DNA of 64,000 nucleotides, taken from positions 56,670,001-56,734,000 of the forward strand of contig NW_024704742.1 of the NCBI RefSeq assembly GCF_018977255.1. The letters are read 5' to 3'. The notes beneath the pieces are model-generated. The model saw nothing but the letters and a program-made list of their open reading frames with translations, searched no databases and had not been told where the DNA came from. Position numbers and translations under genes: made by a program. This document shows positions 2,484-56,671 of the stretch, one piece after another. This DNA comes from Callorhinchus milii (taxonomy: Eukaryota). Within the stretch, counting starts at the first letter, position 1. Each line of letters begins with the position of its first letter.

Positions 2484-2575
2484 TATTATGATTTATGTTT
2501 CAGCAAATATTTTGCAGAAACTGCATAAAAAGGCAGACTGCTATATTTCTGCAAAGAGAATGATTTTAAGGTGCC

Positions 2576-10376: not shown

Positions 10377-10550
10377 AGGGGCAGTGGGGGGGGGGGAGGG
10401 GGGAATCACACCCATTTGCTTGAAAATGAGGAGAATCTGCACTGTTCTTCCCATTGACCTACACACGATCTGCCATATGCCTGAAGCACAAATCTCTCTG
10501 TTGCTTGTTGCTATAGTTACACAAAAGCCAGTGGTAAACCAATGAGCTTT
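10377..10550 (+). promoter_or_regulatory. Candidate proximal promoter: G-tract, RFX X-box and CCAAT box
   Basis: G-run 10377-10403; GTTGCTATAGTTAC at 10507-10520 (reverse complement GTAACTATAGCAAC fits X-box GTNRCnATRGYAAC); aaCCAATgag at 10537-10546; lies in a ~4 kb repeat-free island. Confidence 0.5.
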
Positions 10551-10639
10551 GTGCCACACTGCTGAAAAGGACCAGCCATTTTGGTTATGGGAGAACACTG
10601 GAATAATGCTCTGCTTTATCCAGGAATAAAATCATTCAG

Positions 10640-21600: not shown

Positions 21601-21974
21601 GTAAGGGTATTGTTTTCATTTTGCAAGTCTGCAGTTCAAGGCTGAAAAGGACATAACACGCACTTTTCTAAATTGTACTTACAAAGCAGACTGCGACTAT
21701 AATTGCAGGATGCAAAAGCATATTTGCTACTTTTAAAATGCGGCTGGCATTCTACTTTCAGGTTGACCAAAAATAATTGACTCTTGAAACCGAATGTTGG
21801 CTTTAGAACTGCCTTCACTGTGTTTAGGAGCATTGTTGTGCCCCCCGCCACACACAAACAGATTTTAGCAAATCCCACTGTTTTAGTCTAAAGCACAGGT
21901 TGCAACCAGCAAGCCAACTCATTCGTGGAATACTGCAATCTGGCTTCTTTTTCCAATTCTCAGGGTTGAGTATG

Positions 21975-22440
21975 TCAGATTGGTTCAATAGTAGCACACT
22001 CGTCTCTGAGTTAGTAGGTTGTAGGTTCAAGCTCCGCTCTGGGTCTTTGAACTTGTATTGTCCAGTCTGACACTGTAAAGCAATTCTGCTGGTTAGAGAT
22101 ACCATCCTTAGGATGAGACATTTAAACTACAGTCCCACCTGCCTGTTCAGGTGGATGTTAACTATTCCATGGCACTACTCATAAGGGGCAAGTTTTTCCA
22201 GGTGCCCTGGCGAGCAAGTATAATTAGTTATTCACTTCAGGGCTTTTGCGGGACATTGCCTTTGTACAAATTGGCTGCCATGTTTGCCTACAAAATGCAT
22301 GGGCTACGCTATACCATATGATACAATTTACATTTATGTAGCACCTTTCACATGTGGAATATGATCCTATGAACTGCTTTGAGACAGCTCTCTGACATGA
22401 AAGGTGCTGTATCAAATGTAAGGATTATTGTTTTATTATT
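21975..22440 (+). mobile_element. DeuSINE (SacSINE1-like)
   Basis: gtagcacactcgtctctgagttagtaggttgtaggttcaag; ggatgagacatttaaac..ctgcctgttcaggtggatgtta..ccatggcactac; tail. Confidence 0.75.
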
Positions 22441-22451
22441 ATTTATGTTTT

Positions 22452-22836
22452 AGCCTGGCTCAGTGTTAGCATGCTCCCCTCCGAGTTAGAAGGTTGTGGG
22501 TTCAAACCTGACATCGGGCGTTGAACTCACGTAGTCTTACAGTCCAAGGAGTTGCAATGTCAGAGGTGCTTTGGATGAGATATTAAAATCGAGGACCCAT
22601 CTGCGTGTTCAGGTGGAAATTAAAGATACCACCTGGTACTTTACCATTAAGCTAAAGATCTTTGGGACGTCCTCCCGACATGACGAATGCTATAACGAAT
22701 GCAAGCATAACTATTATTATATTATTTCGCCCACAAAATATACAGTCAATTCACTTTACAGTATATTCAGTGAAGTGCTTTGAGATGTCTTGAAGACTTG
22801 ATAAGGCGCTTTATCAATGCAAGAAATATTATTATT
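22452..22836 (+). mobile_element. Second DeuSINE (to ~22720) plus an adjacent SINE 3' tail
   Basis: agcctggctcagtgttagc..agaaggttgtgggttcaaa; gaggtgctttggatgagatattaaaatcgagg; second tail tttcgcccacaaaatatacagtc at 22724. Confidence 0.75.
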
Positions 22837-24595
22837 AACTGAAGCTCAGCCATGCTACCTTCGGAGTTTGCACCTGTTCTGCACAGTTGACTGAAAGCTT
22901 CCCAAATGCTACCTGTTTTGAGACTTGGCGTGAACAGGATATTAGACTAAATGATCCCCAGAAGAGCAAGCCACAATTGGCACATGGTTCAGGGCTTAAA
23001 TAGTGAAAATAATTTAAAATAAGGAAAAGAAGCAGCCTTCTAAACCCCCCTCCACCCCCCACCCCAAGTTGGCTCTCAAGGATATGGGCTGACCGCAGAA
23101 GTCATTAAATTAATTAAATTTAAAAGGAGACTTTTACTATCCTCCTGCATATTGCATTGTGAAAATTACCTTCAAAATAACTGATGGTAAATACGATGAA
23201 TAAAAAAGTGGTTAACCGATACAGTTTAACATTACCCGAGGAACGATCCAAAGAATTTGCAAGCCCTGAAATTTACTGGCCAAGTGACTTCTCTGAACGA
23301 TTTCAGTTTCACTCCATTCTCTTTACCTGATACTCTGGCCTGGTGCCAGTGTTACACAAGGGTGCTCCACAACTGACTCATGAGGGAACAGTTTGAGTCT
23401 GGAGAGAGCTTCATGCGAAGTTGGCATCTGACCCAGCAGTTTGAAGCAGAAATCCATTTGGTGGAGATTGGAACAGCCGGTGGGAGATGATCAGCAGATT
23501 GAAACCTTAGTGATCTATTCCTCTGGGAGGAAGGGGACTCTGCACACATTGCCACATTGCCATCCGGCGTGGAGGGCGCTATATAAATCCCAGTTGTTGT
23601 TGTCTATTGGTGAGGGAGTAGGTGCACGCAGTACTAACACCGAAGCCCTCAAGGCTGCTTTGAGGGAATTTACATTATAAATTTGTATTGCACTTGAGGA
23701 AGGCAGAAGATAGCCAGGGTCTTGTAGAAAAATGTCAGGAAAGACAATTTGCCTTTGAAGTGCCTTCACAAGTTGGTGAACTGGATTCTAAATGAGGCAG
23801 GGTTTCAGAGTCCAATTGTGGTTGTTATTATTTTTGTAATACCTATGCACAAGAAGTGTGACCCTCGTGAGTTGAATAGTAATGAGGAAACTATGCATTG
23901 AGCTAACGGCTATTGGGAGGAATTACCTGAAGTCTGCACTTATAAACCATGATCATATATCCAGGGCTTGGTATCTAACTTGTGCAGAGAGATGAACTGC
24001 TGCTGCTGAAGTTCTGAACTTCCAACTAGTGGAACCACCTTTTAGTGGGTAGGAAGATGTGTCTAAGCTGTGGGCAGAAGGATAGTGGCAATACACAGAC
24101 CACGCTAGTTTGTACTGCTCAACAGGAGGCTCACAGGGAATTCCTGGTGCCTGCTTTCCACCTAGTGAGGATTCGGCTTGTGCTTGCCAGATGTCAATTT
24201 ACTGTCTCGTTGAGAGGTAGTAAATTGGGTCTCCTTGGGGCTAAGCTGGTTCTGAGGTGATGTTTCTGTTGCTGGAATATTGGAATCTACTCAATCCTTA
24301 GTAGTCTAGTTCCTGAGCCAAGCTGGTCTGCAGTACTCCAAAACACTGTTGATGACAGATCAGTCAGCCTGGCTTGTCAGCAGCAACCTGGGAGAGGCAG
24401 ATCAGTCACTGGAAGGAATGTTTCCAACTTGTTAACCCTATAAGCCAAAGCCCTTAAAGGTAGGGTGGTCTTAGCTGGACAACCAGTGGAATGTTTTACA
24501 AACAATGCTTGCATTTATAAGATGTGCGATTTTTGTTTAGCTGGTTAAATTCCAACAGTATCCCAATCTAATTCTGGGGTCTTCTAGCTTTGAAT

Positions 24596-24913
24596 ATAAT
24601 AATAATAATAATCCTTGCATTTGATATAGCGCTTTTCACGTCGGGAGGACGTCCCAAAGTGCTTCACAGAACACACTGTAAAGTGAATTGACTGTATATT
24701 TGTGGGCGAACGCGGCAGCCAATTGCGCACAGCAATGTCCCACAAACAGTCGTGGATTGAAAATGACCAATTTATTATTGTTTTTGGTTTTTGGAGGGAT
24801 TATTATTAGGCGTGTGGAGTAAGGAAACTTGCCCAAGGTTTCGCCCTGCCTGGAATTGAACTCAGGTCTCTAGCTTGCAAAGCGAGTGCTCAACCACTGA
24901 GCTACAGGACTCC
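24596..24913 (-). mobile_element. tRNA-derived SINE, short young subfamily
   Basis: Near-identical to the 55297 and 59694 copies; aatat on both flanks (candidate TSD). Confidence 0.93.
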
Positions 24914-25999
24914 AATATCATCAATGTGCACCTAATACTTCCAGGCATTAGGTAAGCAGGTGGCCATCTAAGGAGAAAATGCACACTCTATTCCAGACAA
25001 ATGGGATATTTCCGTGTGCAGGTTGCATGTATGTGTGGAACTGGCTGGTGTGAACGCTCGTAAGTATGGTGATAGGTGTCAGACACCTGGCTGACCCACA
25101 AAATAAAAAACAGCTGCTGAAATTTCTCTGAAAAAATGAATTGAATTCTTCCACAGATTTTAGAGACTGTCCGATGGTAAGTTTCACTGAGCTCTGCCTA
25201 CACGATTCATATGTTACATTTAAACAGCAATTTTTTAGATGGTGTCAGACACTTTTTTTGCAGCATCAACGATGCTCTTGGTTTCTGATAAATCATCAGA
25301 ATCACGTACCTCGTCCTATCAATCGAGCTGTCAGGCTGGAGTTATTGCTGTCATTTTTATTATTGAGCTTGTGCTGTATCTCTGAATGATGCAGTGCCTT
25401 GTTTTCTGAAGTCACCTCCACCAATAGCCGGGCTATTCTTTGTTACACAGTACTTTAGCAGTGTAAATAAGGTCTCCTCTCCTGAGACAGCCTAATTTAC
25501 TGTTGACTTTCTCTCCACTAGTACAGTATTGCTCTTTCCTGTTACTGTCTTTTTTTCATGGGAGCAGTTTGAGATTGCTTTTTTTGTGTCTAACCTGAGT
25601 GGATGAACAAGCTCTAAGGCAATTAATAGACACATTTATATTTCATCGATGACACTGACCATCCATTACTTTGTGTTGCACCAATTTGCATTATATCACA
25701 TGTTAAGGGGTCATTGTTCATTGCTAATGAACAACCCTGGTTAAGGGATGCATAATGCCCCAATGACCAGCCGATGGAAAGAAATCCCTGTCTAATTATG
25801 CCACCCGATTTCCCTCTGTACTTTGATTCTCAAGAGTTTCGTGGGGGATCCAATTTTTCCTCTGCTGAAACATTTTTTGCTGCCACTATATATATAGGTC
25901 AGTACAATGTTCACGGGGTTGCGGGGGGGGAATCTAATGGTATCTTATTGAAGATGCACAGTCCATTTTGAGAATGCAGATCCATTTTCTGTGAATAAA

Positions 26000-26350
26000 A
26001 TAACAACAAATTACATTTGTATAGCGCCTTTCATGTCGGGAGGACATCCCAAGGTGCTGGATAATCAGAGATTTGGACCAAAGCACCAGTGGGGAGCAGG
26101 ACAAAGGACTGTTGGATGGAGTTCCAAAGGGTGGAGGCAGAGAAGCTGAAGGCCCGACCACCAATGGTGGGCCAGGTGTGGGCCGTGGCGCAGGTCAGAG
26201 CCTGGTAAACGGAGGAAGCGGACAGGTTGATATGGGGTTAGCAGATCACAAAGGTAGGAAGAAGCAAGGCAGTGAAGGAGAGGATGAGGATTTTGGCTCT
26301 ATCCTCTGGGGAATGGGAAGCAGTGGATCCAGGCGAGGGTGGGGGTGAAA
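26000..26350 (-). mobile_element. L2 3' fragment, degraded
   Basis: aacaacaaa..gcgcctttcatgtcgggaggacatcccaagg; gatggagttcca; gctgaaggcccgaccacc; cctctggggaatggg. Confidence 0.75.
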
Positions 26351-27146
26351 GGAGGTAAAGGGGTGTTTGTGACATTTGATAGTATATAATGTGATGTTTG
26401 TGAAGTGTGATGAACCATGGGGGGACATTTGTGATGCGCATGGGGGATGTTTATTCAAGATCTATTTGGTCTTGATCCTGACTTTCGGACGTCTTTTCCC
26501 CTTCCCACCCCGAGCTCAGGTGCTGGGAAGGGGTAAAAACATCCGAGTAGACGCTGGGAAGGAGAAAAGACTGTTAAGCACTTACAAACATTTGTCAGGA
26601 AGACATTTAATTTGTTTGAATGGTATGATGGTATATAGTATACTTAAAGTCATGTTCCAATGGTGGCTTCGAGCCAAACCACATTGCTGTTCCTATATGC
26701 AGTATTCTCATCTGTCACAAGCAAATATTTGAGGACTAGCTAGAGAAAACCCCTTCTTTCATGAAAGATTTTTAAACATGTGATCCTACAAGATATATTG
26801 TATGCAGTGATGTTAGCAGATCAGGTCATGATTTGCAATGGGTCTCACAGTTTATTAAATGGTACTGAATTCTACCAAATCTATTGTACCAACTGAGTTG
26901 TTAGATAAAACCTTCCTGGGGTTTGAAATATTGTGTTATAAACCTGTCTGCTCGGCATTCTAGTAGTTTGTCTTTGAGGTCTGGTGTCACTGTGGTTGCT
27001 GCCTGTGAGTCTAAAAACTGCCATGGCCAAAGAAATTCTGTACTCGTTTCACAGGAAATCTTGGTGAATAAAACCAAGTTTATTTTGGGAGGTAAAGGGA
27101 GCTTGCCCTTTTCTCCCATCTTTCTTTTCTAAAGTCGCTGACTCTT

Positions 27147-27420
27147 TATTTCTCTTTGACCGTGCCTTCAGCTCCCCTCTCGACTCTCTTCCCCCTCCTC
27201 GCTCCCTCCCTTCCCTCCCCTCACCCTGACCATTTCCCCCTCCTTGCTCCCTCCCTTCCCTCACCCTGACCATTTCCCCCCTCCTCGCTCCCTCCCTTCC
27301 CTCCCCTCACCCTGACCATTTCCCCCTGCTCGGGTCATGACCCAACTGTGCAGCGCCTTGGGACGTCCTCCTGACGTGAAAGGCGCTTTATAAATGGAAT
27401 CTTGTTGTTGTTGTTGTTGT
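27147..27420 (+). mobile_element. L2 3' end with tandemly duplicated 3' UTR segment
   Basis: tctttgaccgtgccttcagctcc; cctcaccctgaccatttccccc occurs three times; stem-loop and (TTG)n tail. Confidence 0.88.
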
Positions 27421-29924
27421 TTATTCTGGTACAGTTTCACAGATTTCATTTGCAAGTGAATCATTGACTTGAGGATGGGAGGGGAGCGAAGGGAAATGGC
27501 ATCACAGACAAACGTGTCATCACCGAGCCTCCTTTTTTTTTTGGCAGAGTGGTTGTCTTGACACATGCGGAAGCCCATCACTATGGTTTTGAATATCTAA
27601 ACCACACAGCAAGTTCCATGTATTATTCCATTGTCTTATTCATCTAATTTAATTAGACACTGCAACTTCATGCAGCTATTGGAATACTTTCACAAAAAAT
27701 CATTTGCAGTATGATGCACCTGCCTAAAAACATATTGAGCCTTAACTTAAAAGGTAACTATCCAATAATAATCATTGCTTTTGATACAGAGCTGAAATAT
27801 CTCAAAGCACTTCGCTGTACTGTAAAGTGGTGTGACTGTATGTTTCTTGTGGATGATGCGGCAGCCAATGAAATAAATAATTTAGCTAACTTACAGGAGT
27901 TTAATAATTGTTAATACATTCAACTGTGTTCTTCTTGATTACGTTTGGCAAGGGTTGCCAACCTTATGTACACGGCTAAATCTTGCATATTATCAGGGAT
28001 GTGTATTTTGCGTGCAAGATCTGTGTTGGGGTCGGTCCTGAGCCTAGCTACCTGAAAGAGAATAAGGCAAGGTTGTCCACTTTTGCTCATTTTACCCAAT
28101 CTGATTACCAATTATGTTATCTGCAATGATAGCAAGGTCCCATTAGGCTTGTAGCATATAAGATGTGTGTCCAAACTGTTCAACTTCAAGGCTTGTGGCT
28201 CCTGAACACACATTCCTTTCAAGACTTGCAAAGTCCAAGACCAAGCAGTTAGATGGATTTGTAATAAGAGCTGCAGGAAGAACAGTGCTGGTATATACTA
28301 ACCTGTTGCTCTGCAGCTTGGAGGTATGTCTCTTGCCAAGGCCCCTCACATGAGTCCCTGGATAAAACTAGAAGTAACAGTTGCTAGACCTTGGACCTCT
28401 AGAACACATGATACATGGCATTCAACTTGAACCTCCAGAACATCAAGATTGTTGGCAACTCACAATTTATCGAATACCGTACAAGCCCTTCCACCACGCT
28501 GAAGTCAGATATTCATCAAATAGCTGAGGAAGAACCCCTGAACCTTTGAACAATGACTGTTGAAAGGCATTACCTGAAGTCCTGCTTGATCAGTTCAAGC
28601 TCATATCCAGGGCTTGATACCTACCTTGATTGGTACGAAAGTAAACTTTACATTTACAACTGGTGGAACCAGTTCATTTGGTCTGTGAATAGGAATGTGT
28701 GTCTGAGCTCTGGGCAGGAACATCAATAGCAATTTTTAAGATAAGCTTCACTGTCCACAGTATGACTTGTGAACAGTTCCTGGTATATTATCTACCAACT
28801 GAAGACTCTAAACTGTGCTTGTCAGATGTCCGATGACTATTTAGTGACTATCCTTGTAAACCAAAGCACTTATGGGTGGTTGTCGTTGGACAAGTAGTGT
28901 GAAGCTTGTCAGTGTTCACAATGATTTTAGTGTGATTTAGCTGGTTAAACTCCAGCAATATCTTCATGGACACACTGGATTCTCCAGACTCAACTGGGCG
29001 GTTGGCAAAAGACGGCATCTCTCCAGCTGGAGAGAAAGCAAGACTGAAACAAGTTACCTCAACCATTCTCATGCATCTCTCAGCACCAATGCACAATGGA
29101 CTTGATAGATTGCCTGTTTCCCCTTTAATCTACAGGGTTCTAGGGTAAAATGGGAATTCCTATATTTTCCCAATTCCCAATGCAAATATCAAAATGGGAA
29201 GCAAATGGTGGGGGAGATATTCTTTTTATTAGGTTTAAGTACATTGACCAATGGTGAGACAAGAGAATGAAACGGAAAAATACTCCTAACTCAATTCAAA
29301 ATAGTACCAGGAATATATGTATTTCTTCTCCTTGCAGCAGGCTGTAGGCAAGGCAATTTTTAACTAAAAAATTATGCTGACACCTGAGTTTTGTTGTTTG
29401 CTACAGGAAGGCTAAAGGCAGACAACCAGGACAGGCCTAGACATTGCAGCAAGGGCAGGGGAGAGGCACTGCAGTGAGAGCAAGGGAATGACAGTGCAGC
29501 AGAGGGGAGGGCAAGAGAAATGGAAAGAGTCCAAATTGAGAACAAAGGAAGGAAGACTTGGATGTGAGACAGGGAAGAGAGAAAATGAAGATAAAAGGAA
29601 GCCCTGTAAGGTGTTTTGAAACATTTTGATGTAGGCACTGTAACAAATGTAAGGATATTGTAATAGATTGAAATAGAAGAAAAGAAAGCAAACTATAGGA
29701 TCTGCTAAGTGGTGATTTCTAATTGATTTCTGTAAGAAAACCTAGTTGGGACACCTGGTGTAACTGGAGGTAAGTTATGAAGGCTAGCTGAGCATAGATG
29801 ATGTTGGAGCAGAGCTCCTACCAGTTAGTGTAACGTACTTCCTGGTTTCTAACTTCATAGGTCCCATTACAAATCACTGCATGTTTGATCCCAGAATCAA
29901 CAAAAGCAAATTAGAAGCAATTCT

Positions 29925-30325
29925 GGATGTATGGCAGCACTCTTGCCTCTGAGTCAGAAGGATGCGGGTTCAAGCCCCATGTCAGGACTTTGCACTCACA
30001 ATCTAGGCTGACACACCAGTGCAACACTGGGGAACTGCTGCAATGTTGGAGGTGCCGACCTTCAGATAAGATGTTAAGCCAAGCTCCCGTCTGCCTGTTC
30101 AGGTAAATGTTAAAGATCCCGTGGCACTTTTGAAACAGAGAGAATGGAGTTTACAAGTCAAATAATCCCCCAGAATCAAATTGATCATTTTATTTACATG
30201 ATTACATTGCAGTGAGCTTGTTGATCGCCACGTTCACCTACAATTAGACAATCTCGTTACTCCTGTGAAGCACTTTGAAGCTTCTCAGTGACATAAGATG
30301 TAATTTCAAATGCAAGGATTATTAC
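29925..30325 (+). mobile_element. DeuSINE (SacSINE1-like)
   Basis: gcactcttgcctctgagtcagaaggatgcgggttcaagcccc; ggaggtgccgaccttcagataagatgttaagcc..aaagatcccgtggcac; tcaaatgcaaggattatt. Confidence 0.82.
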
Positions 30326-30494
30326 ATCGTCAGAATATTCAAGCAGCAATGGGAGAACAACAAAAAACAAGAGCGGTTTACATATTTTTAATCAAGTATT
30401 TGCAGTGAAATAAATTGCAAAACCAGGAAACATGAGTGGTAAAAACAGGGGAGGGGTGGAGAAGTGCTTGAATGCTTACATAATATATGTATGG

Positions 30495-30630
30495 TAATAA
30501 TCCTTGCGCTTGATAAAGCGCCTTTCACATCAGAAGGGTGTCTCAAAATGCTTCACAGGATTTTTACTGTAAAGTGCAGTGACCATGTATCTTGAAGGCG
30601 GACATGGCAGCCAATTTGCTCACAGCAGAG
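30495..30630 (-). mobile_element. SINE 3' fragment
   Basis: taataatccttgcgcttgataaagcgcctttcac..ggcagccaatttgc. Confidence 0.7.
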
Positions 30631-33600
30631 GTAAAGTCTGAAATGATGGGGGAGTTTTCCAAGCAACAGAATTGTGCATTTTGCGGGAAATTAATGGATC
30701 AAGTAGAAAATAAAAACAGGTATATCTGTGCAACGGAAAATGATTACGTGAAAAATAAACATGTTTGTTTGAGCCAAGGACATTGCATTGCTGAATAAAC
30801 TACTTTTAGATTTTAGTAAAACCCACTGGACTAACACTTGCTGAGTGAGTTTTAAAGATCTGGGTCAGTCGGCACAATGTGATTACGTCTCTGGGGATCT
30901 GTAAGGTTATAAGGAGAGTTTTTCACATGACTTGTTCCATGCAGTTCTCACTGACAATAGTGGTTTTCTTTCAGTCTTGGTAAGTGGTGCAATTTGCAAA
31001 GTGGAGGTATTTGGCATGGCTGTATTTGTATTTAAGAGGAGTGCTCACATGCTTGCAAGGATTACCAAACTCGTTCTATGTATATCTCCGACGATTAACG
31101 ATCTTAGTTGCTGGTGCTTTATTCAGTTGCTGCACGCAGTTCAGGAACTTTTTTTTATAAACTTCTAGTAGGTCCAAGTGACAGATCAGCAATGTCAACA
31201 CTTTTGAGCTGTATGTGTTTTAAAATAGGACTTTACGGAATTGAAATATCATTTCCAGAATTAAATTAGCTGCTCCCGTAAATCTCAAAAGGGTCTGCTG
31301 TTAACAAGTAGCGTGACTTGGGCATGTGAAGCATTCTTTGGAGGCTCTTTTTAGAATGTATTTTTGTATACTTGAGGAAAGCTTGCTGGTCAAACTACTC
31401 TATTGTGTTTGCTGTTGGGGTTACAAAGTGAGTGAGGAACTATGTTTCATTGAGGCTTCAGCCACGAAAGCTGCATGATGAGAAGGAGAGTTTGAAAAGT
31501 CAAGTCAATAGATATTACAAGTTTACCGTGAAAAGTAAACTGGAGAAGACATTCTTCTGATAAGATTTTTTTAAAAATGTTCTTCATATGATGTTGATGT
31601 CATTTTTTTTTTGTATTTTGTGTCTCCACACCCCCCTCCCCTCCCCTTCCCCTCCAGACACCCCACTTAGTATATACAGCTCTGAAACTTCAGAGGTTCT
31701 GAAGCTTCAGAGCTGTATAAACTGTACATAAAAGCTGATGACTTTTTTTTATTGACTTTGCAATTCATATGTTTGTTTTCAGTTTGTTGATTTTTTTAAA
31801 CCAACCATATTTCTGCAATTGTAACTTTTTGTATTCAAGTAAATGTTTCTGTAATATAGAAAGTTAGTGCGTATGAACTGATTATACTGTATATGTAGGT
31901 ATGGTTGATTGGGGAGGGATGCATATCTTCCACCACCATCCTCCCTAATCCCAGCTCACATGTAAATCCTTGACTGTCCAGTGCCTTGGGAAGTTCTCCC
32001 AACGTGAAAGGCACTATGCAAATGTAATTTGTTGTTGTTTAATTTGAGAACTTCCAAATGTTGCATTTCCTACTTTCCATTTCTTACACAGAACAGGTCA
32101 GTAATGTGCAGTAGGATCAGATGAAGAAAGTCATTTTTAAAACACCTTTGAATCTTTTAAATATGAACTAACATAGAAAAGCAGCAGAAGAAATTGTAAT
32201 GGGAATAAATATTTCCCTACAAACAAAAGTACTGTATTGTGGAATACATAACAAGTATATTATCCATGCACAAGTCTGTTCTGTTGGTGCTATTTCTGTT
32301 GATGGGCATTTAAAATAGGGTTGTGAATGGAGCTTTTTGCAGCTTGATTATATCTTAATGGGAAAGACCTCCGTTTAAAAAAAAGGTAGACACAGCCTTT
32401 TTATATTTTCACCTAATTGTACTGAAAGAAATACCTCCCAAAGGACTAGAGGAATTCAGGGCTGCTCACAAATGTTGCTCTGTGCTCCTGAAAAACAAAC
32501 AGCAACAGTATGTACAGCTCAGCACAAGGTAACAGTATGCCTTTTATCAATGTGCTGAATGTGGTGTCAGATTTTAGTGAACAAAAAATAAGCTCTTGAA
32601 CCATTATTTACATAACTGGATTCTGAGGATTCAATTTTTTTCAAAAAAGGCTTGTGCTTTTTCCACGGCAAGACATACAATGAAATGTTTCACTATACCT
32701 AAAATGTAGCTGATGATAATTGAACCAAAAAAAACGCGTTTCTAAGAATGTGATCAGGGTGATAAATACTTTGTGACTCAATTTTTTTTGTAGTAGAAAG
32801 GCTTAATAATATCCAGTTATGTGTATTAATGCATGGGCAGTTCTAACACAGTATGCTATCAATAGCTCTGTAAAGTGCTATGATTGCCAGCTCAGTGGGG
32901 CCCAGCTTTACTGGTTCTATTTACAATTTCTATCGACACTAAAAAATCCCTGTCTCCTGAAAAATAACTTTTTTTTTCCTCCTGTGTTTTCCCTTTCTGC
33001 CTTTATCCACTTAGTTTTTCCAGAAGCTATTTTACTTTCCCCTGTTTCCCTTTTGTTCCTTTCTTTCCATTTTTGGTTTTGATTGCTTCATATACAGTGT
33101 ACCTTTTGAACAATTTGATCTAAACTACAACATGATTCTTTCACAAGAGAGTAAGCAAATGGACCATTTGGTCAATTGAGCCCATTCCTTCGGATGGACC
33201 TTGTAAAGTTGGTAACATCATTATATATTCCACTGAACCTCCATTTAACAGTCATACCCTTGCTCCTCTTTCCTTACTTGGCATTCACCACTGTTCCTGA
33301 GATACCCTTTGAGACTTTATCCTATGTGAAAGGTGGTGTGTAAATTGTTGTTGATGTTAATCCCCTGAAGGATTATTCAATAATAAATTTGTTTGATTTT
33401 CTACATATTGCACGGTAGTTTGAAGCCGCATGCATGCAGTACTACACATGGCATTCTTTACTGTGGAATGATATAGTTTTTGAGTGGGTCTGCCAACTCT
33501 TCCACTTCATCAAGTAATAGTCCATTCAGCTTTCATACCTTAATTATTATTGAAGAGGAGAACTGAATCAGCAAGCTGTATCTTCTTTCTACGCCCTTCC

Positions 33601-34869
33601 TAATTTATTACAGATAATACTCAACTCTAAGTTGAAATAAACATTAGTGATGCGCAATAGAGAACCATGGAATTGCTGTTTCATTTTCTGTAACTCACAA
33701 AAAATATACAAGTGATTTACTAAATTTCTGTAGTAGAATGAATAGTCCATTATTACTCACTGAGCAGTCCCTTTCAAAGTTTTTTTTTGGGTCAATGGGG
33801 TTTATGACACATGGGGAAACCCATCACCATGCTTAAAAGTATCCAAACTAAAATGAAAGTTCTGTGCATCCCATCTATACTTGGAAATTCCAGAGATATT
33901 TATTGGAATGGAATGTGCACTCTTTCCCTGAAGAGACGTGGACAGTATTAAGTAAGTAGAATGTGTCCCTCCAAGGAGAGAGTGTGCACTCCACTCAATT
34001 TTTATATTGGATCTTGGAATGAATTTTTTTATAATGTTGTACGCTGCTTCGATCAATTAGAGTGTTGCTGGAGCCGGTGGTGTTCAAGTGGCCTTTGGTT
34101 GAAAACTGCGCAACCACAATGATGTAATTATTAAAATAGAGCTGGTGATTCATAAAGGAATTATTTGTCCATTCTAAAAAGTCAGGGGAATTCGGAGCCT
34201 AATTTATTATTGCAGTCCTAACATTATTTATTATTATTATAATTCTAAATTTTATAAGTTACTTTTTTTAAATTGTTGGTTGAAAATGCAACATTTCGTA
34301 ACTGATTTTGTTGGTCTGTAGTGATATATATTGAATATATTATCAAATGTCACCTGTTTAATCCTACCTGGGTTAAACAGAGTTCCAGGATGCTACCCCG
34401 CGTGAAAGGCGCTATATGAATTCAAGTTGTCATTGCCCACAGTTTAGCTTCTTTAAGCTACTCTGAGAAAACTTCTTTGATATCAGGAATAGTAATATTA
34501 CAAGGTGCAATGTGAGATATCAAAATGTTACTCCATGTCAAGGTCCAGGCTGGCCTGAAATAAATTGAAAAGATGTTGTGATTAATACAGTTGCTAGATA
34601 ATATTTCAACATAAGTGAGCACAACCAGATAAGGTATGAGTGGCAAAGGAATAATCTAATTTGCCTCTCATGTTTGTGGTCTGCATTGTCAGAAAATCTG
34701 ATACTGGCCAGAATCTCTACATTCCCTTTGTAGAGAGCAATTCAAAGTTTAAATAATTAAACTGCAGTCATGCAGTCGCTAGCTGGTACAGCAAACATGC
34801 TTAATTTTATTAAAATATGAATTTAATGTACCTGTTGTTTCTGCTCATTGATGTACGCCTCTTTGGTCG

Positions 34870-35190: not shown

Positions 35191-36980
35191 CCTGTTGGCT
35201 GCAGCTTTACCCATGAAACAGTCAGACATTTTTCTTGGCTACTACCTGTGGTGTGTTTGTTCATTTACTTCTAATTTTGAAGCACACAGTTAACCCTGGG
35301 TGGGGGTGGGGCAGGACCACAGCTGTGAACACAGTGAATGACTGAGTACCTAACATACTTGGCACAGACCCAAATAGCCCCTAACTAGTCTTATCTCTAA
35401 TGCCAGTCATCACCACCACACTGCAGGACTATTCAAGTGATAGCTCTGGGATGCTTTTTTCTTGAACTCAGTCCCAGAACCCACAAATACATTGTTTGGT
35501 AAAAGAATAAAATACAGCTGCATGATGCAGATTTTTGCATTGCAATTCAATCCAAGGAAGCATTTCTCTGCACTGTCTTTGGGAATAAAAAAAAGTAACA
35601 TTTCATAATCAATTCAGACCAAATTGTTTACACAAGTGAAAGTGGGGGAGTTCAGATTTCTAACTAGACTTCTGAAATTGATGGTTCATGATTCATTTAG
35701 TATGTTGTATTTGTCACCCCAATGTTCTATGGCTGAGGTTTACAAGGAAAGTGAGGGAGTTTACAAGGAAAATTTGTGCTTGTATTGATTTTCCACTCGT
35801 CTCTTTTTATACATGAAGCCAGTTTTGATGTTCTTGGTGTACTATGAAATAGAAGGATTACACTGTCTGTCTGAAATACTAGTTTGTATGCACATAATCC
35901 CAAAACAATAAGAGCTAAATTGTCCAGCGATCAGTATACAGTCAGTTTGCAAAATCTGGACAGTTATACACATGTCACAGGAGAGATAGCAAGGATACTT
36001 TCTTTAAATCACAATGAAAATTGTATGACTGCTAGTCTGAGGAATGGTGTAGTCCGTGGATCTGGTAGTTGTAAAGACTCCCAACAACGTCTAAGCACAG
36101 CATCTAATCTGTGCACTATATGATGTAACTTTCTTTATATGGCACATACCAGCATTCCATGTAAAGATAGCAATGTTGTCTGAATACTGACGTGTGATAA
36201 GACTTGGCGAGGTGACTTTCAGACCAATAAGTGTTTTGGAGACTGTGTTGTAGAGATGCCTTTAAATGACTTTCCATCAGCTCTGGCATCTGCCCTTCAG
36301 TCCTAGCTCCAGACCCACATGGGCCGAACAGGGAGATCTATGGATTGTCCAGAACGCTTATGGAAATAATGTAGATAAATAGCAATTCATTAGGTAGAGA
36401 GGTCCACCAGAGGAAGGATTGATTGGGCCTGACTCATTCACTAAACACCACTGTAAAAAAGGATTTAAAGAATACCATTTTCATGAAGAATTATTTTCCG
36501 ACTAATTTATAGAATCCGGGAAAGTTTACACACTGCAGAGGAGGCCGTTCGTCCCATCATGTCTCTGCTGGTTCTCACTCCCTCACTGGAGCTATCTGTC
36601 ATTCCTTTTTCCCTTCTCTTTCGCTGTCCCCTTCAGTAATATTGTTTAAGTCTTTATCCAATTCCCATTTAATGCTGCTTCTACTCAGCTAGAACAGACA
36701 TTTGTGGTAAGATATTCCAAAATCTAATCACAAATGTAACAAAAATTCTTTCTCTATTTACCCTATGAAAATCATTCATGATTTAGAAAATCTCTGTTAG
36801 ATCTCTCGTTAACCTTCTCTATTCCAACGTTTAAAGTCTCCCTATTCCCTCTCATGCATGATGTTTGTGCTGGTGAATCTCCACTTCACCTGCTCCAATA
36901 TAGTAATGCCATTTATATAACACTAGCTGTACCCGTTGCAGCTACCCTTGCAACAAAAGTATTATTATCTTCTTCCTCTA

Positions 36981-37451
36981 TCTTATACTAATAAAGATGA
37001 AATGTCTGTTGTGTGTGTCTGCCAAGAATGCAATAACTGCCGAGAGTCTCCCCCTCCCCCCGCCCCCCCCCCACCCCGCCGAGAGTCTCCCCCGTCCCCA
37101 CCCCCCGGCCGAGAGTCTCCCCCCAACCCCCCGGCCGAGAGTCTCTCCCCCACCCCCGCTGAGAGTCTCCCCCCACCCCCTACCCCCCAGCCGAGAGTCT
37201 CCCCCCCACCCCCACCACCAAGAGTCCTCCCGCAGGAGTCCTCCCAACAGTAGTCCGCCTGACTGAGTCCTCCCAACAGGATTCCTCTAAAAAGGATATG
37301 TGTGCAAATATGTGAGCAAGAGATGATAGCGAGTTGAATAGCATATTTTCATCATCTTTCTGGATAAAGATGTCTAAGAAATGGCAGACCAAAGAGAGAA
37401 GGCCGATTAAATGAAACTGGTTGCAAACGTAGCTCCAACAGATATAGCTAG
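36981..37451 (+). mobile_element. Non-autonomous Helitron-like element (inner, inverted copy)
   Basis: A|TCTTATACTAATAAAG...GTTGCA-aacgtagc-TCCAAC-agatatag-CTAG|T; 5' ~55 nt homologous to the outer copy. Confidence 0.75.
37039..37285. repeat. C-rich minisatellite, core ccgagagtctccccc
   Basis: Six (gc)cgagagtctc-Cn units with variable C-run spacers, followed by degenerate gagtcctccc units. Confidence 0.9.
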
Positions 37452-39884
37452 TACTTTATATTATTATACTTTATATTATATTGTACTTTGTATAAGACAT
37501 TATAAATCATGTCTCTACATTGATCAATTATTACATTATTGGCAGACAGACAGATGTGTCTCTCTAAAAGGGTGTGTGATTTCCTCCTTTGTTGCAGAAT
37601 ACCTCATATTTTGGGCTTAATTAAAACATTTAAATATAACTCATCAACAATAGGAGATCCCCAGAAAGAAATATGCCCATGGCACTCCCCATGCAAGACC
37701 TTTCCGATGAGGTATAAATCATGTCTCTACGTCCATTGGTTATTGCGTTATTGGAAGACAGACAAACATACAAACATTTTGTCTTTATTCGTATAGAAGG
37801 TCCCCAAAAACTACACAGTAGACAGGCTATGATCTGACTAACTTTTAACATCTCCCTCCCTGCCTTGCATGTAATCATATCACAACACATGTAGCAGGAT
37901 TATGATGAAAATGACAAACAACAACAACTTGAATTTGCATAGTGCTCTTCACGCGGGTAGCATCCCGAGCGCTTCAGAGTGGCGGAGTCTGACATACCCC
38001 TCTTCTCTTTCTGCGGACTAAAATGTTTTTAATAAACAGATCAGACCTACTTGATGAAGACTGACATTTAAGGGGGTAGCAGCTCAGATTTCTTTTATCA
38101 TTTTTAAATATTTCGTTAGCATCCAAAGGCAGAAAACTCAGAAAATGTACTGGTTTGGAATCCAAAGAAAAACATTTTTTGTGTGTGTTCTTTTAAGTAT
38201 TTAAATGGGTGCGTTATTAAAGACTTTAGCTATCATGCTTCAAAATTTGGTAGATCTGCTTGAAAATAATTGTTTTTATATGTGTGTGGGTATGTATATA
38301 TAAGTTTTACATATATTGGCAATATGAAAAGTTTTAAAACCAAATATAATCTCTGTTTGTGAACCCATGTTGTATCTGGTGAAAGTAGAGGTTTCTGAAG
38401 TTCTTTTTGTTTCTCTTGGTCGATTGCCCTTATTTTACGGTCTCCCTGGTATTTATACAGCTCCCAATGCATGACCTCTGCGAGAGCATCAGTCATGTTT
38501 CACCTCAGCGTGACCCATCCAACAAGTGCTTAGTACTCTCGAAAGGAAAGGGGATGTGCACAGTTTTGCGAATTCGGCTTTAACAAACAATGGCAGTTTG
38601 AACCGATTAGGCTTTTCCACACAATCATTGAAGTGCTCTATAATGTAATACACTTGCAGTAGGAGTGGGCAAACATAACCTTGCATGGAAGGGTTGTGGG
38701 TACACGGCTCTTATAGTATTTTTAGCCCCTTGCATTGCTGATAATCTCTTCATGCCATTGCATGACCCTGACACTTGCAGCTGTAAAAGCCTTAGTTTGT
38801 GTACCTCAGTGAAGGTGGAGCAGATGCTCTCCATGTCAGAGACAGTGAATTGAGAATGGAGATTTGCTAAATTTATTGCACAGCACCATTCATAGAACAT
38901 GTGCTGTCTCATTCCATTCTCTGGATAAAGAAGAATTTCTTTGAACTTTTACTTGTTGGCACGTAAGTACAGAACAGACTTTTAACCATGTACAAAAAGG
39001 CTAGCACTGCGGTATGGCATTCACAGATCTCTAGTTTTGAAGAATATTGATTATTAATGGATATTAAGTCATCACCTACGCAGTAGTATTTTTCCCACTG
39101 CAGTCTGACCCACACACCCAGGACACATGATTCTTGTAAGTCTTTAAAGAGGATTAAAGGTGTTAATCTTCCAATGAACTGAGTAAGACCTGGCTGCAGA
39201 AAGCACTCCATAACACTGAGCCTATAATTCAAATGGCTGTCTGTGTGCTGGGAAAGTTTCATTTTTGACTGGTAAGTTATTTATTAATCAGTGGTTGAGA
39301 GAAATTATTGTGGGATAATGCCTATAATTTTAAATGGGTTTGACAAAATGTTGCTGTCTGGGTGATATGTTCTACATTTTCAGAAATGTTAAATGAGAAA
39401 GCTTTGGGACGTCCTCCCGACATGAAAGGCGCTATATAAATGTAATTATTTTGTTGTTGTAAATGATAAAGTATATTTATATTTTTATCCCCTCCAACAG
39501 CCCTGCCATATTTACAAACTACAATGCTCTATTTAATTGGGTCATCTGCACAGATCATTTTATCTTGTGACATGCTGGTCACTTCGTAGGGTCAGATATA
39601 GTGTGCAGAATTGATTGTCTCTATTGAGTTGACGTTTATGCTAGAATATTCACCTGTGCATTAGAAGTGGGGAATATCCAGTCAACAAAATGCAAATTTG
39701 TTTTCATACATATTTCTGTAGAAAGAATTTCATCAGGATAAATTGTCTAATGCAAAAAAGAAAATCTTGATGAATGCACGTGATGCTTGATGCAAGGAAC
39801 TCAAAGCTGTTCAATGCTCAGATTGACCAACTATTGTTTTGAGATTTTATGGTTATTATAATGGCAACAAACATATGGTAAATA

Positions 39885-48114: not shown

Positions 48115-51100
48115 AGACACATGGAAATTTCTCTGAATCTAGCACACTCTCTCAGGAGGGATGCACCCTGCCCACCTAACTCTGGAATGTGTTAGACACA
48201 AGTTGGTGAGACCCAAGGCTTGGTTACCCTAGAGTGTGGTTGTGGTACTGCTAGAGCTTAACTCGCTAAAGCTGTTAAGCTCGAGCATTGAGAGCTCTGT
48301 CTGGCAAGTTTCCTGGGACAACCCAATCCAATGGGGGCTATGGCTTGCAGGGTTAACATGAGCTGAGTTGGAAGAACCCCTGGCCCCAATATTTGGTCTG
48401 CCTCTCCAAATCCCATTGACATGCCACATTGGCTGGCTTCTCCTCATCATTGCCCTTGAGTACTGCAGCCCCATGTCGCTCAGGAGGAGGGCAGAGAGGA
48501 AAGCAAGTTTAAGTCTGATGAGCAAATGCACTATCAAGTAATGTTTTCAGAGAGGACACCATTCGTTTATTATTTTGACAGTAAAAATATTACCAACAGT
48601 GAAATGCATTATTTGTTCTTCAGGAGTAATAGAGTATGAGATGGGCAGATAGATGGGTGTGAATAGGGAGGAGGATTATTCAACAGAACCCTCATAGGAT
48701 CAGTAATATATATATTTTAGGGTGTCCATTGCCAGTGGTGTGTTGATGTAAATCATTGGAGCACAGGCTTAATTCTCTCATTCCTTCTTAATCTGTTGAG
48801 AATTGCCAATATCAGTCCCAATAGCTGGAGGGAGATCCCGAATGGTGGAAGGCAGAAACAGGGACAAGCAATACTGGGGCCTGTTAGATTCAGTTGCAAC
48901 TGGCTGCAGTTCACCTCCTATCTGCAGAAAGTACATGACCCTGTGAACACCAGAAAAAGTATTATTTGGGATTATTTAATAAGGAATCTGAGTAGGAACA
49001 TGTTTCTAGAAGTGCTGCATGTTCTACCTACTTGTGGGAACTGCACTCCGAAAGTAGATTGTGTAGGGGCAGTGTTCTAACAGGTCATCTTTCTGAAATT
49101 TTTCTCTACTCCTCTGCAGTCACCAAGAGGAGAATCCATCAAAAATCTCTCCGAGCTCTTGATGTGGATTATTAGCAGAATTCCACTAATCAAAATGCTA
49201 ACATGATAAACCAGGCCTCTAATGAACTGCCTCTTCACCAGTTTAAGGCACTAACTTGTGAGCTGCTCAACTAGGAAAGCACAATGAGTTCCCTCAGAGC
49301 TGTTAGTAGCCATGACAAAATGAGTACTTTGCCTGAATCCGAATTTGAAGTACAAAGTAACTAGGCAGTTAGAGCAAACAAATAGATCTAGGAGGTAGGT
49401 GCCAGATTACATCAAACTCTTGTTTTGGCATATTTCCCACATTCCCCCCCAGGTAGTGTCGCGCAGGAGTTGGCAAGAAGTTGTCATGTAGTCTGACGAT
49501 TGAGCAGTAATGGTGAAAAGTAGGGAATGAATAACAGGCGCTCTACTTATGAACGAAGGGATCAAGTAGAGCTGAGAAGCAGGTGAGCATAATGAGCTGC
49601 TTCCCCAGTCAGATTGCCAAGATCAACTGTTACATTAACAATGTCAAACTGTCAGACCAAACAAATGAATTACTATACAAAGTAACTCACAACGGAATAG
49701 ATCAATGTATTGCTCACAGGTATGCCAATTTTTTATTTGTCGGAGTATATTTTTGTAACTATTTTGACACAATGCGTTGGAACACTGTCACCTTGGACGG
49801 TGGGATTGACGGTGCGAGAATGTAATATGTCTGCTGTCTCACAGTTATTGCATTCCTGTAGCACCAAACAACTCTCAGATTTGTCACCAATTAGTAATAA
49901 ATTAAAAGCCTGGCTTGGGAGAGGTCAAAGACACAGAAATAGGAATGTGACACAGGGGGTAATCTGCAGAGCATGAGGTCAAAGTACTCTGTTAAGCAAC
50001 ACAGCCTTGCACTATATCTGACCTATGCCGTACCTGACCTTCGAATGCCTTCCTGATGCGGTCATTGAATACCAGGTAGAAAAATGTACCAATCCCCAGG
50101 ACTCGAATTGTTCCTGCACAGAGTATATTTAAAAATAAGTTTGTTTTTATTCAATATGAATAGTTTTTTTTAAATCTATTCTTTCAACAGAATAAGGCAA
50201 TTATGCAATGTACATTTGTTTCCTGCAGTGCTTTGTGGCTACAAAGTTTTTTTATTTCCAAAAGAAGGTTTAGATCCTCTTGTCAGAAGAAAACTAGCAT
50301 GATCATACATTGTACTTCATTATTCCAATCATTTTCTATTGACTACAAAGTGTTTAAACTTGATCTCTTAATTTACATGAGCTGAACTGACCCATTAACA
50401 AAAAAATTGTGGTGGTGTTTGTTGCCTGCAATGTGTTCTAATCCATATTTTCAGCAGGAGAAAGAGCTACTATAAGACTGGTTGATCATTAACTAAGTGG
50501 TATTAATAACCAGAGGTGACTTGTGTTCTAATAAACCGGTTTGTCAGTTCTGTTCCCATTCTCACAGTGTTGCCTGGAAACCGATTGCTCAGCAGCAATG
50601 TAACGTCTTGCTTTTCATTACATTAAATTCGCTTGTGAATTGGGTTATGATGAGTTTATTTGCTTGAAAATACTACGTTTGCATTTGGTAGAAATGTTTT
50701 TGCATATGCGTGGACCACAGCAGGAATTGCACTGGCTTTCAATAGTAGCACGACCCATGGGGATGGGCATCAAAGCGCCAGAGAGAAGGTATGGAAAGAA
50801 CCCTTTCACAAAGTGAAATCTGCATTTTAGTTTAAATGCTGAGTATTGCAATTGCTAGCTTAAAAGCACCAGGAATGTAAACCAACGTTGCAGTAAATCA
50901 ATAACTTAGCTTTGATGTTTTAAAATTGAGCAATTCTGTAACCAAATTAAGGAGATTGATTGACCTTGCCACAGGGCACAACTTGAGTCTTTTGTTCCAT
51001 GAATTTATGAATTGATATGTTTTCTTAACCTTTTTATTTTATGTGCATGGCTATCAGTTTATTAACGGTGTTTTCTCATTCTTCAAATGCTCTTGTTTAT

Positions 51101-52801
51101 GGTGAATTTATTGCTAACAGCTGCTGCCATGCTTGCAAGAAAAGAAAATATATCTTTCTGCATTTTCTTCTGGTCCCTGAAGCAAAGTCACTATCAGACC
51201 ACATTGACGTGTCTGACTTATCTTCTTCCAGCAGATGTACAAAAAATGCAGAGCGCACATTTAATGATTCATTTCTAGTTTTATCCAAAACTCTTGAGCG
51301 AACAAGATTCCCAACTCCTTTTGAACTCAACTGTGGCAACTGTTGGATCAAATTCCCTTGTTTTGGTTGCAAACAGAGATCTCACATAAATCATTTTGGG
51401 GAAGTGGGGGGGAATTTTCCCTCCACTTGCACAGAATGGAAGAGGGAAGAATTCGCCATTAATTTTGAATCATTTGCTGGGAATGTTTGTACCAGCATTC
51501 TTCAAAGGTTAATTAAGGGTTGCAGAAGGCTGCCTGAGTAAAGTGTCAGTCGTAAGAACAACAATTTCTACTTCCGACACATAGATGTTGTTAGAGAATG
51601 TAGTGAAACTGTGTTAATGAGTGGCTGTCATTTAGTGTGAATTCCAGCTTTTTGGCAACTTGTCAAAGAACACTTTTTTTAAAAATTGACTGCTTATTGT
51701 AAGGCTAAGCTATTTTGTTTCCCCCAGATACAATTGATCTTTTTGGCTGTTTGTGGGTATTGCTGTTTGCAAATTGGCTGCTGTGCTTGCCTACAAATGT
51801 GCAAATTTACTGTAAAGTTCGGTAACTAATTTATAGGCGAGCACGAATCCTGTGAAGCACTTTGAGATGTCCTTCCAGCATGGAAAGTGCTATATTAAAT
51901 GCAAGTATTGTCTTAATTTCCACTTCATAATCACAAAGTTGAACTTCTTGTTCTCTTGTAATTGTATTGCCTCACTATGGACTTTGTAGATAATTGGTGT
52001 CAAATATTGAGAGATTATCAGTTCATATCATTTCAGAATAGTTATGCTTGTTGTGATCAGTTTAAACACTGTACTGTCATCGACCATTAACGACTTTAAA
52101 ATGACGGTCAACCAAATCGCATTAACCAAGATAAATTTGCTATAACCTTTCGGAGGCTTATTGTCTTAATGTATGCAGAGTTATCTTCTTTCAGTATCAG
52201 ATCTATGTTATGTATTCAAATTAGTCTTTCCTCTGTTTGATTGAAATCTTTTTAAAATGTGTACAAATCGTCTCAAAAGCCTTCTCATGCTTTACACAAC
52301 ACATCTGACTTAGCTTCCAGCAGATGTACAAATGCAGGGTTTACATTTAATGATGTGAAGATGCAATTTTTATTGCACAATTTTAAGGAGACTGCAGTAT
52401 AAGCTGGCAGGCAGGGATGGGCCAGCCGGGCGAGGGGACAGTTTGGTAATTTACCAGAACTGTGTGCCACACAATACTATATATGGAAAGCAAATTTTAA
52501 ACATATCTTAAACCTCCTCCTTTTGTTGCAATTAAGGATTCCTTGAGGCAAGATTTTGAATTAGGTCTGCATTTGTTTTTTTGTCATTTAAACACCATTG
52601 TCCATTGCTGTGCAATGATTTATCTTGGTGCTGATCTTCTTCTGGAGTCTAACCTCTAACCTTTTCTTTAGTTTTAATTCGAAAGTTATGTGGTTTAATC
52701 ACTGGTAATCAGCTTCACAATAATGAGGGTAACCAGTATAAAATTGTACATAATCTAGGTATTTTCAAATTTCCTGCAGATCTCCTTACCTCCTGGAAAC
52801 T

Positions 52802-56304: not shown

Positions 56305-56671
56305 TAATAATATATAATAATAATTCTTCATTTCATATAGCACTGTATCATGTCTTCAAGACGTCTCAAAGCGCTTCACAGAATATACTGTGAATTGACT
56401 ATATTTTGTGGTTGAAATGTGGCAGCCAATTGCACACAGCAGTGTCCCACAAATAGTCGTGGATTGAAGTGACCAATTTATTTTTTTTGAAGGGATTATT
56501 ACCCCCAGAAAAGCGATCCGTCAATCGACTAACAACCAGGCTCCTACTTACTGCTAGTTAAACAGAGGTATGTGGAGTAAGGAAACATGCCCAACATTTT
56601 GTCCTACCGGGGATCGAACCCAGGTCATTCGCTTGCAAGGTGAGTCCTCGGACCACTGAGCTATAGGACTG
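56305..56671 (-). mobile_element. tRNA-derived SINE, long subfamily
   Basis: aaagcgatccgtcaatcgactaacaaccagg..ggatcgaacccagg..accactgagctataggact. Confidence 0.88.

Follow-up and report, generated by a model that had tools for sequence, protein, structure and literature searches.

What kind of event produced a block of repetitive DNA in Callorhinchus milii (elephant shark) that interrupts a decayed LINE and carries two sets of Helitron-type ends on opposite strands? We analysed this block within a window (the whole 64,000-nucleotide stretch of DNA under study, to which all coordinates refer), in which a minus-strand outer element (37797–36923) encloses a plus-strand inner element (36981–37451). 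We put at about 0.8 the probability that the two are canonical (HLE1) Helitrons belonging to a single clan, both dead and non-autonomous, with the inner inversely nested in the outer. The features are listed in Table 1; insertion sites are written with a dash at the point of insertion (for example, A-T).

Table 1 Features of the nested locus and its LINE flanks, in window coordinates
Feature	Coordinates	Strand	Basis or remark
Outer non-autonomous Helitron-like element, 404 nt without inner	36923..37797	-	TC start, stem-CTAG end, depth fall beyond both ends
Outer 5' terminus: TC, A/T-rich start, TGTY microsatellite	37739..37797	-	79% like 36984-37037
Subterminal core, first copy	37686..37764	-	Highest depth of stretch
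Second copy of microsatellite and core, 5'-truncated, 11-nt loss	37494..37554	-	83% over 52 nt, spacing 212
A/T-rich outer interior, target region of inner insertion	37452..37493	-	17-nt tandem unit
Outer 3' terminus: 6-bp stem, 8-nt loop, 8-nt spacer, CTAG, then T	36923..36954	-	
Inner non-autonomous Helitron-like element, 471 nt, A-T site	36981..37451	+	Termini; right junction bridged
Inner 5' terminus	36981..37037	+	79% like outer 5' end
C-rich 26-nt minisatellite grading into 14-15-nt unit	37039..37289	+	
Probable transposase-gene start remnant, two stops, cut at 37419/37420	37290..37419	+	43-codon frame
Inner 3' terminus: one-mismatch stem, CTAG, then T	37420..37451	+	28/38 nt like outer 3' end
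Decayed LINE 3' region downstream of outer, probably CR1, left edge approximate	36600..36922	-	
Upstream part of same decayed LINE, right edge approximate	37798..37870	-	Single-copy depth

A letter check of the window found the coordinates that an initial annotation had given for both elements to be exact and bore out its description of their ends. The outer element opens with TC at 37797–37796, has stem arms at 36954–36949 and 36940–36935 and closes with CTAG at 36926–36923 and a T at 36922, while its plus-strand relative is bounded by A 36980 and TC 36981 on one side and by CTAG 37448–37451 and T 37452 on the other. The inner element does lie near the outer 3' end, but at a distance of 58 nt rather than about 55. 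The A-T target, named there as a Helitron hallmark, is shown for the inner element (A36980, T37452) but not for the outer, which sits at a T-T site; the base preceding its TC (37798) is indeed T, as had been cautioned. No target duplication was found among repeats of 2–20 nt at the outer flanks, and a 2-nt TA repeat stands to each side of the inner one.

The hairpin motif is weak evidence when taken alone: across the 64 kb of the window, a hairpin followed by CTRR and T occurs 6 times in perfect form and 41 times with one mismatch. For the outer element a 6–7-bp stem is predicted to fold 8 nt before CTAG, whereas the predicted fold of the inner 3' end does not form its one-mismatch stem, and neither 3' end folds better than its shuffles (z of -1.0 and +0.4). 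The likeness of the two elements at both ends as a pair, and the repeat boundaries seen in contigs, do go beyond chance. The 5' ends of the two elements are 79% alike over 57 nt (E = 1.7e-8), the inner start carrying one extra T, and the 3' ends are 82% alike over 33 nt (E = 2e-4; 28/38 nt ungapped). Their interiors do not align, and so the earlier idea that one family had inserted into itself stands in an amended form, as related clan members rather than one family. That they share a clan follows from one contig per run that joins outer-type core to inner-type interior (junction 37293/37687, opposite strands). Within the 64-kb window there is no further copy of either element.

We compared the locus with contigs from four sequencing runs of the organism (X1, X5, X6 and X7 of X1–X14). 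In X5, X6 and X7, repeat depth, which is not a copy number, is 3,000–34,000 inside the block against 5–9 in the flanks, with steps in the very bins that hold 36923 and 37797. Depth is about 3,000 at the outer 3' terminus (bin 36893–36953) and peaks at about 34,000 in the core at 37686–37764, which is common to a far more abundant relative; loose ends at 37687–37694 and 37745 lead into other flanking sequence in 22–96 contigs per row. A depth of 0 at 37076–37136, within the C-rich repeat, proves nothing. At the outer 5' end, contigs from other loci break within 37795–37799: two break at 37795 and 37797 and are then unlike the window for 311 and 1,124 letters, and two joints still match through 37798–37799. 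At the inner 5' terminus, joints from other loci land at 36984–36991, and at the inner 3' end all three other-locus X1 contigs listed break at 37452, after CTAG and T, into unlike, A/T-rich sequence. Copies elsewhere share the same boundaries, and neither element is bounded by terminal inverted repeats or a target duplication; these boundaries, the TC and CTAG termini, the form of the hairpin and the paired end likeness uphold the non-autonomous Helitron assignment of the initial annotation.

Relatives at other loci vary in their internal make-up. Joints at 37007 to 37262 and 37009 to 37233 show other copies to be shorter in the inner minisatellite, and joints at 37476 to 37687 and 37677 to 37507 show other arrangements of the outer core units. 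The copy of the 5' subterminal sequence reported near 37500 is present (37501–37552 against 37713–37764, 83% alike, E = 4e-10) but is a truncated internal duplicate within the outer element; this second core may have arisen as an internal duplicate or as a captured second 5' part. No empty-site polymorphism was seen in X5, X6 and X7, where contigs of the locus span both outer junctions, so the 25–28% of missing words does not mean absence of the element. Searches elsewhere for short patterns gave 0 matches in viral contigs for the 3' motif, 2 in metagenomes and 0 in viral contigs for a 20-mer of the core, and 1 in viral contigs for a 19-mer of the coding remnant; the three loci match over the pattern only and were rejected as chance.

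Both elements have the 5' TC and the 3' CTRR (as CTAG) of HLE1, with a subterminal hairpin some 10 nt short of the 3' end that is present in form and weak in energy, copies that end alike but are scattered among differing flanks in contigs of the four runs, and no target duplication or terminal inverted repeat save the TA at the inner element. We weighed this against a reading in which the whole 875 nt is a single HLE2 (Helentron/HINE) element, the inner 5' end being its right subterminal inverted repeat. An inverted arm (11–18 nt) before the 3' stem-loop and a T-T target are traits of HLE2 (PMC11417382), and the composite has both, in a 14-nt arm that pairs its 5' end with sequence just upstream of the 3' stem-loop and in its T-T site. 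The inverted likeness, however, spans 57 nt and begins at TC on both arms, and the inner element has its own stem, CTAG and T, where other copies end. It is the nesting alone that creates the 14-nt arm: the longest arms are 10 nt in the inner element and 8 nt in the outer without it, the latter matched by 74 of 100 shuffles, and neither element taken singly has a terminal inverted repeat of at least 11 nt. Most contigs with the outer 3' end (35–37 of which match up to 36959) depart there into another interior. A single HLE2 element is very unlikely. T-T holds for the outer and not the inner element; for Helraiser, TT is described as a leading minor target, with A/T richness strongest on the 3' side (PMC4778049), as here (18/20 and 15/20).

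An unlikely, though less far-fetched, account is a cluster of Helitron fragments that mimics nesting, put together by independent insertions next to one another, by template switching or by recombination among copies. It would suit the mosaic outer element with its two cores and the many hybrid joints among relatives, and at the inner left junction (36980/36981) no bridge was found among the contig pieces listed. The right junction is bridged with 0 differences by one X1 contig piece (37409–37670). Excision of the inner element in silico leaves an AT dinucleotide within continuous A/T-rich sequence, and removal of the outer leaves its flanks in one codon register, judged by a CR1 motif that we assume. 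A joint from 36952 to 37456, in one contig each of X5, X6 and X7, fits an outer-type copy that lacks the inner element, although its short side is 21 letters with unknown letters between, a kind of joint that is often false. That the inner element is instead a TA-duplicating cut-and-paste MITE of Tc1/mariner type, or a repeat of another class, is extremely unlikely: TA does stand on both sides, but there are no terminal inverted repeats (3/15 end bases pair, and end-to-end pairing is at chance level), its ends resemble the outer 5' and 3' ends respectively, and a reading of STPR type continues past 37419.

At 37419, 15 X6 contigs depart from the inner element and read on in its frame with a pattern of STPR type, so that the inner element probably derives by internal deletion from an HLE1 Helitron that was autonomous, a point new to this analysis. 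The STPR repeat has 23 residues with named positions Glu1, Thr/Ser2, Gln5, Arg6, Arg9 and Leu10 (PMC4856987) and is described as found almost only in HLE1 (PMC11417382). All six named positions fit, Glu1 and Thr2 from the window and Gln5, Arg6, Arg9 and Leu10 from the loose end, with only 12 residues of one repeat visible and the fit judged by eye; its chance is roughly 2e-4 once rows, frames and offsets are taken into account, and it comes from one 30-letter loose-end consensus (agreement 0.76) in one run of four. The inner element would then keep the 5' end, a minisatellite and the first codons of an STPR-type N-terminus from its parent, joined at 37419/37420 to the final 32 nt. At the first stop codon of the remnant (37336), most other copies carry another base (21 contigs, X5). 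The 43-codon translation (P0002) had no match in Pfam, the protein collection or the PDB, Pfam found no Rep or helicase domain in the 188 stop-to-stop frames of at least 70 aa in the window, and no Rfam family or tRNA lies within the element. The sole Pfam match among the 188 frames was an L2-type RT at 8601–9116. A search with a candidate host exon (P0001) yielded no relative.

The flanking LINE is probably CR1 that reads through once the outer element is removed, as initially proposed. Its translation fits what we take to be the CR1 C-terminal motif, 1 nt having been lost a few bases ahead of the junction, and the codon register of the upstream part presumably fits that of the downstream part by the same motif. 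Depth reaches 47–70 at 36710–36831. Pfam identified CR1 in none of the three frames of the flank, there was no Atlas match at 0.9, and the window holds no second CR1 copy against which to align it; the L2 C-terminus in the window gave a weak match (E = 0.32). Two protein matches to the flank were rejected as repeat-rich, unrelated proteins with no tblastn match to the window.

The order of events would begin with the LINE 3' fragment, into which the outer element (about 400 nt) would have been copied at a T-T site; the inner element (471 nt) would have been copied last, in the opposite direction, at an A-T site in the A/T-rich outer interior. Directly after the inner 3' end, 18 of 20 nt are A or T, a level reached by 0.9% of the 20-mers in the window. 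By the Helraiser model, a RepHel transposase acting in trans would nick at the 5' TC, peel off one strand and stop at the hairpin before CTAG, and the copy would be joined into A/T-rich DNA with no target duplication. The nesting appears to be due to chance: as a rough estimate, a genome of 890 Mb with 400 to 4,000 copies, each 400 nt long, would have 0.07 to 7 chance nestings, and more with a preference for A/T-rich DNA, so no targeting is implied.

The two elements resemble Helibat1/Helraiser and HelibatN, as described in PMC4778049, in the 5' TC, CTAG 3' end, subterminal palindrome, lack of target duplication, an A-T target (here that of the inner element) with TT as a minor one (here that of the outer), A/T-rich 3' flank and short non-autonomous derivatives. 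The likeness is one of features, and the elements differ from Helraiser in having no transposase gene in the window and a short, decayed stem (6 bp perfect, where Helraiser has a palindrome of 19 bp). The non-autonomous Heli1Xen1 HLE1s of frogs, lizards and bichirs are alike by description in the TA-rich 5' end, CTAG and a similar 3' hairpin arm, with hundreds to thousands of short copies and internal tandem repeats in relatives; they are not reported there from cartilaginous fishes (PMC12001565). Helitron self-insertion has already been described for FoHeli of Fusarium oxysporum, with nested copies, duplicated short 5' parts, one 3' end and a proposed insertion in opposite orientation, as here; FoHeli are non-canonical fungal elements with inverted repeats (PMC5148889), whereas both partners here are canonical and non-autonomous.

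We found no description of the Helitron families of the window in the open-access literature. The suggestion that such elements are poorly annotated in this lineage is partly right, but autonomous HLE1s of the elephant shark and thorny skate are already in Repbase: Helitron-1_CM (C. milii) and Helitron-1/2_AmRa (Amblyraja radiata) are classed as HLE1 in Supplementary Table S1 of HELIANO, which also reports thousands of HLE1 copies in three rays and skates. Helitron-1_CM, of the same group and species, is the obvious candidate parent, and the 37419 breakpoint offers a direct handle on the autonomous parent. It is highly improbable that the composite was copied as a unit and is a fossil intermediate in which Helentron-type ends arose from canonical Helitrons by inverted self-insertion; if true, such an intermediate would belong to a clan in which short Helitrons number thousands. 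The nested pair is a clear but ordinary case of known mobile DNA and adds little beyond annotation, although it dates three insertions relative to one another. The C. milii genome has been described as very poor in, or nearly free of, DNA transposons (PMC4350176, PMC6817897); the present locus shows that short HLE1 Helitrons form an abundant clan in it.

Two dead, non-autonomous Helitrons of the canonical type (HLE1, defined by a TC start, a hairpin followed by CTRR and insertion between A and T; PMC11417382) lie one within the other in this region. The inverted nested pair of Helitron-like elements claimed in the initial annotation is real and was correctly read, and it is of a known kind. 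Helitron self-insertion, opposite orientation included, has already been described (PMC5148889). The sequence agrees with the proposed orientations and termini (see table) and with an insertion near the outer 3′ end, at a distance of 58 nt rather than ~55 nt. The outer 3′ end carries a 6-bp stem with an 8-nt loop and 8 nt between stem and CTAG, and the inner 3′ stem has one mismatch. Likeness between the two elements is 79% across 57 nt at the 5′ end (E = 1.7e-8) and 82% across 33 nt at the 3′ end (E = 2e-4; 28/38 ungapped); no alignment was found between their interiors. Because hairpins followed by CTRR and T are frequent in the window (6 perfect, 41 with one mismatch) and neither element's 3′ end folds better than shuffled sequence, we do not count this motif as evidence, which comes from the paired ends and the boundaries. 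Direct repeats of 2–20 nt flanking the outer element are absent, and the inner element is flanked by a TA direct repeat only. A TA-duplicating MITE is very improbable, there being no pairing between element ends (terminal inverted repeats).

Coordinates of the nested elements and of other repeats in the window
Feature	Position	Strand	Basis or remark
Outer element	TC at 37797 to CTAG 36926-36923, then T	minus	sequence
Inner element	TC at 36981 (A before) to CTAG 37448-37451, then T	plus	sequence
L2-type LINE remnants	7800-9400, 16700-18650, 53660-54290	minus	RVT_1 match at 8601-9116
tRNA-like heads, probably SINEs	2577-2648, 24841-24911, 55303-55365, 56599-56670		three called tRNA-Ala

Contigs from 4 of the 14 listed sequencing runs of the organism (sets X1, X5, X6 and X7) were aligned to 36100–37905 at 80% likeness. 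Summed depth in X5, X6 and X7, which is not a copy number, rose from 5–9 in the flanks (36832–36892 and 37808–37905) to ~2,300 at the outer 5′ end, ~3,000 at both 3′ ends and ~34,000 in the outer subterminal core (37686–37746). Repeat depth is thus hundreds of times the single-copy level, with edges in the bins holding 36923 and 37797. Aligned contigs mostly show 80–95% likeness, and C>T and G>A lead among the differences. The clan is therefore not a young one; the 64-kb window holds no further copy of either element. In X5, X6 and X7 each outer junction is crossed by locus contigs, and X1 record 5 crosses the inner right one without a difference; no piece among those listed spans the inner left junction. 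Among the eight X1 pieces listed, three from other loci contain the inner 3′ end, and all three stop at 37452, after CTAG and T, and continue A/T-rich. Two further other-locus contigs, both long, end at 37795 and 37797 before unlike sequence. These shared edges, with no end pairing, bear out the expectation of dispersed copies with the same termini and neither TIRs nor TSDs.

Only the core (37686–37745) is shared by a far commoner relative (depth ~18,000–34,000) with a different, microsatellite-bearing 5′ flank, which is probably the clan's main non-autonomous family. The 3′ end (36923–36959) is common to another relative, or the same one, with a different interior. Many contigs (depth 12–56) pass from a minisatellite unit at 37246 to 5′-end-like sequence at 36989 or 36991 via 7–11 variable letters, possibly as tandem arrays or through repetition of 5′ parts.

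In X5, X6 and X7 alike, one contig switches from 36952 to 37456, as expected for a copy of the outer type that lacks the inner element, a weak joint whose short side is only 21 letters with unknown letters between. In silico excision of the inner element leaves AT within A/T-rich sequence. Outer-type core is joined to inner-type interior (37293/37687) in one contig per run, and 37798 to 36984, two 5′ ends head to head, in a single contig from each of three runs (33-letter short side); such juxtapositions thus recur, and both elements belong to one mosaic clan. It is nevertheless unlikely that the locus is a jumble of Helitron fragments rather than a clean nesting. On a rough estimate, 0.07–7 chance nestings are expected at 400–4,000 copies; chance suffices, and targeting is unnecessary to explain the arrangement.

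Even less probable is that the whole composite is an element of HLE2 layout (the Helentron/HINE type). It does have a 14-nt inverted arm ahead of the stem-loop and a site between T and T, as in HLE2 (PMC11417382), but this arm is part of the 57-nt likeness between the two TC ends. Without the inner element the best arm is 8 nt, reached in 74/100 shuffles. Contigs that share the outer 3′ end mostly depart at 36959 into another interior.

Within the nested pair, the third copy of the 5′ subterminal sequence reported at ~37500–37560 holds as a likeness (37501–37552 and 37713–37764 are 83% alike); it lacks the TC end and has lost 11 nt relative to the first core. Joints at other loci include a relative with a single core ahead of the A/T-rich part (37476 to 37687) and one with the second core type ahead of the first interior (37677 to 37507). 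The copy may be a variable unit of the element's interior, or it may be left over from a capture in the same direction, a process put forward for Fusarium Helitrons that carry two 5′ parts (PMC5148889).

Insertion between A and T holds for the inner element but not for the outer, where T precedes TC, as the initial annotation had cautioned. Two other-locus joints match through 37798 and 37799, which would put T before TC there too, so an A-T site is not established for outer-type 5′ ends. Among Helraiser insertions, 46/1,751 were off AT, TT being a leading exception (PMC4778049). Past the inner 3′ end, 18/20 nt are A/T (equalled by 0.9% of window 20-mers), in agreement with Helraiser's 3′-side preference (PMC4778049).

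The window looks non-coding and carries L2 remnants and SINEs with tRNA heads; 1 of its 188 frames matched Pfam, as reverse transcriptase. Translations of both outer flanks fit what we take to be the CR1 C-terminal motif; in the register set by that presumed motif, codon count is continuous across the outer junction, with one base lost just before it. Pfam matched 0/3 flank frames, an Atlas search at 0.9 and a literature search for the motif returned nothing, and the 64-kb window has no second CR1 for alignment; two matches from an exhaustive protein search were unrelated proteins. A weak match to an L2 C-terminus (E = 0.32) and repeat depth of 47–70 at 36710–36831 agree with a decayed LINE flank. 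Near the LINE fragment end lies a short repeat (36527–36648; depth 290–400, then 50–80), and just past the upstream flank a dispersed repeat tail (37909–37993), probably of a SINE or L2, with at least six further window copies. At 51100–51381 (minus strand), a 94-codon open frame resembles a host exon; a search among longer proteins gave no relative.

The window's repeats fit the L2/CR1-rich make-up described for the elephant shark genome (PMC5381603), which two surveys call poor in DNA transposons (PMC4350176, PMC6817897). HELIANO's table of Repbase entries classes Helitron-1_CM (Callorhinchus milii) and two Amblyraja radiata entries as HLE1, and its survey reports HLE1 in 4/8 cartilaginous fishes, no chimaera among the 8; copy counts in three rays and skates range from 1,651 to 11,154 (PMC11417382). 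The suggestion of a poorly annotated lineage holds only in part: autonomous HLE1 elements are catalogued, and the open-access literature yielded no account of the short families, which may already carry names in Repbase or Dfam.

The inner element is probably (about 0.75) an internal-deletion derivative of a parent whose gene starts with STPR-type sequence, a 23-residue repeat. Its reading frame from 37290 has 43 codons and two stops; the first stop codon (37336) has a different base in most other copies (21 contigs, X5), and the second does not appear among the rows listed. Fifteen X6 contigs depart from the window sequence at 37419. A reading by eye across this point, in the same, verified frame, finds Glu1 and Thr2 in the final codons before the break and Gln5, Arg6, Arg9 and Leu10 in the loose end beyond, all positions named for STPR repeats (PMC4856987), which in HELIANO are nearly confined to HLE1 elements (PMC11417382). 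The fit extends over only 12 residues of a single repeat, seen in the table of one run; its rough chance is 2e-4, allowing for 24 rows, 6 frames and 10 offsets. The 43 window residues had no match in three libraries (Pfam, protein collection, PDB). At the break, the beginning of that gene would be fused to the 32 nt that end the element. Beyond what could be read from the sequence, the analysis adds the evidence of other copies and a probable tie to the parent's gene.
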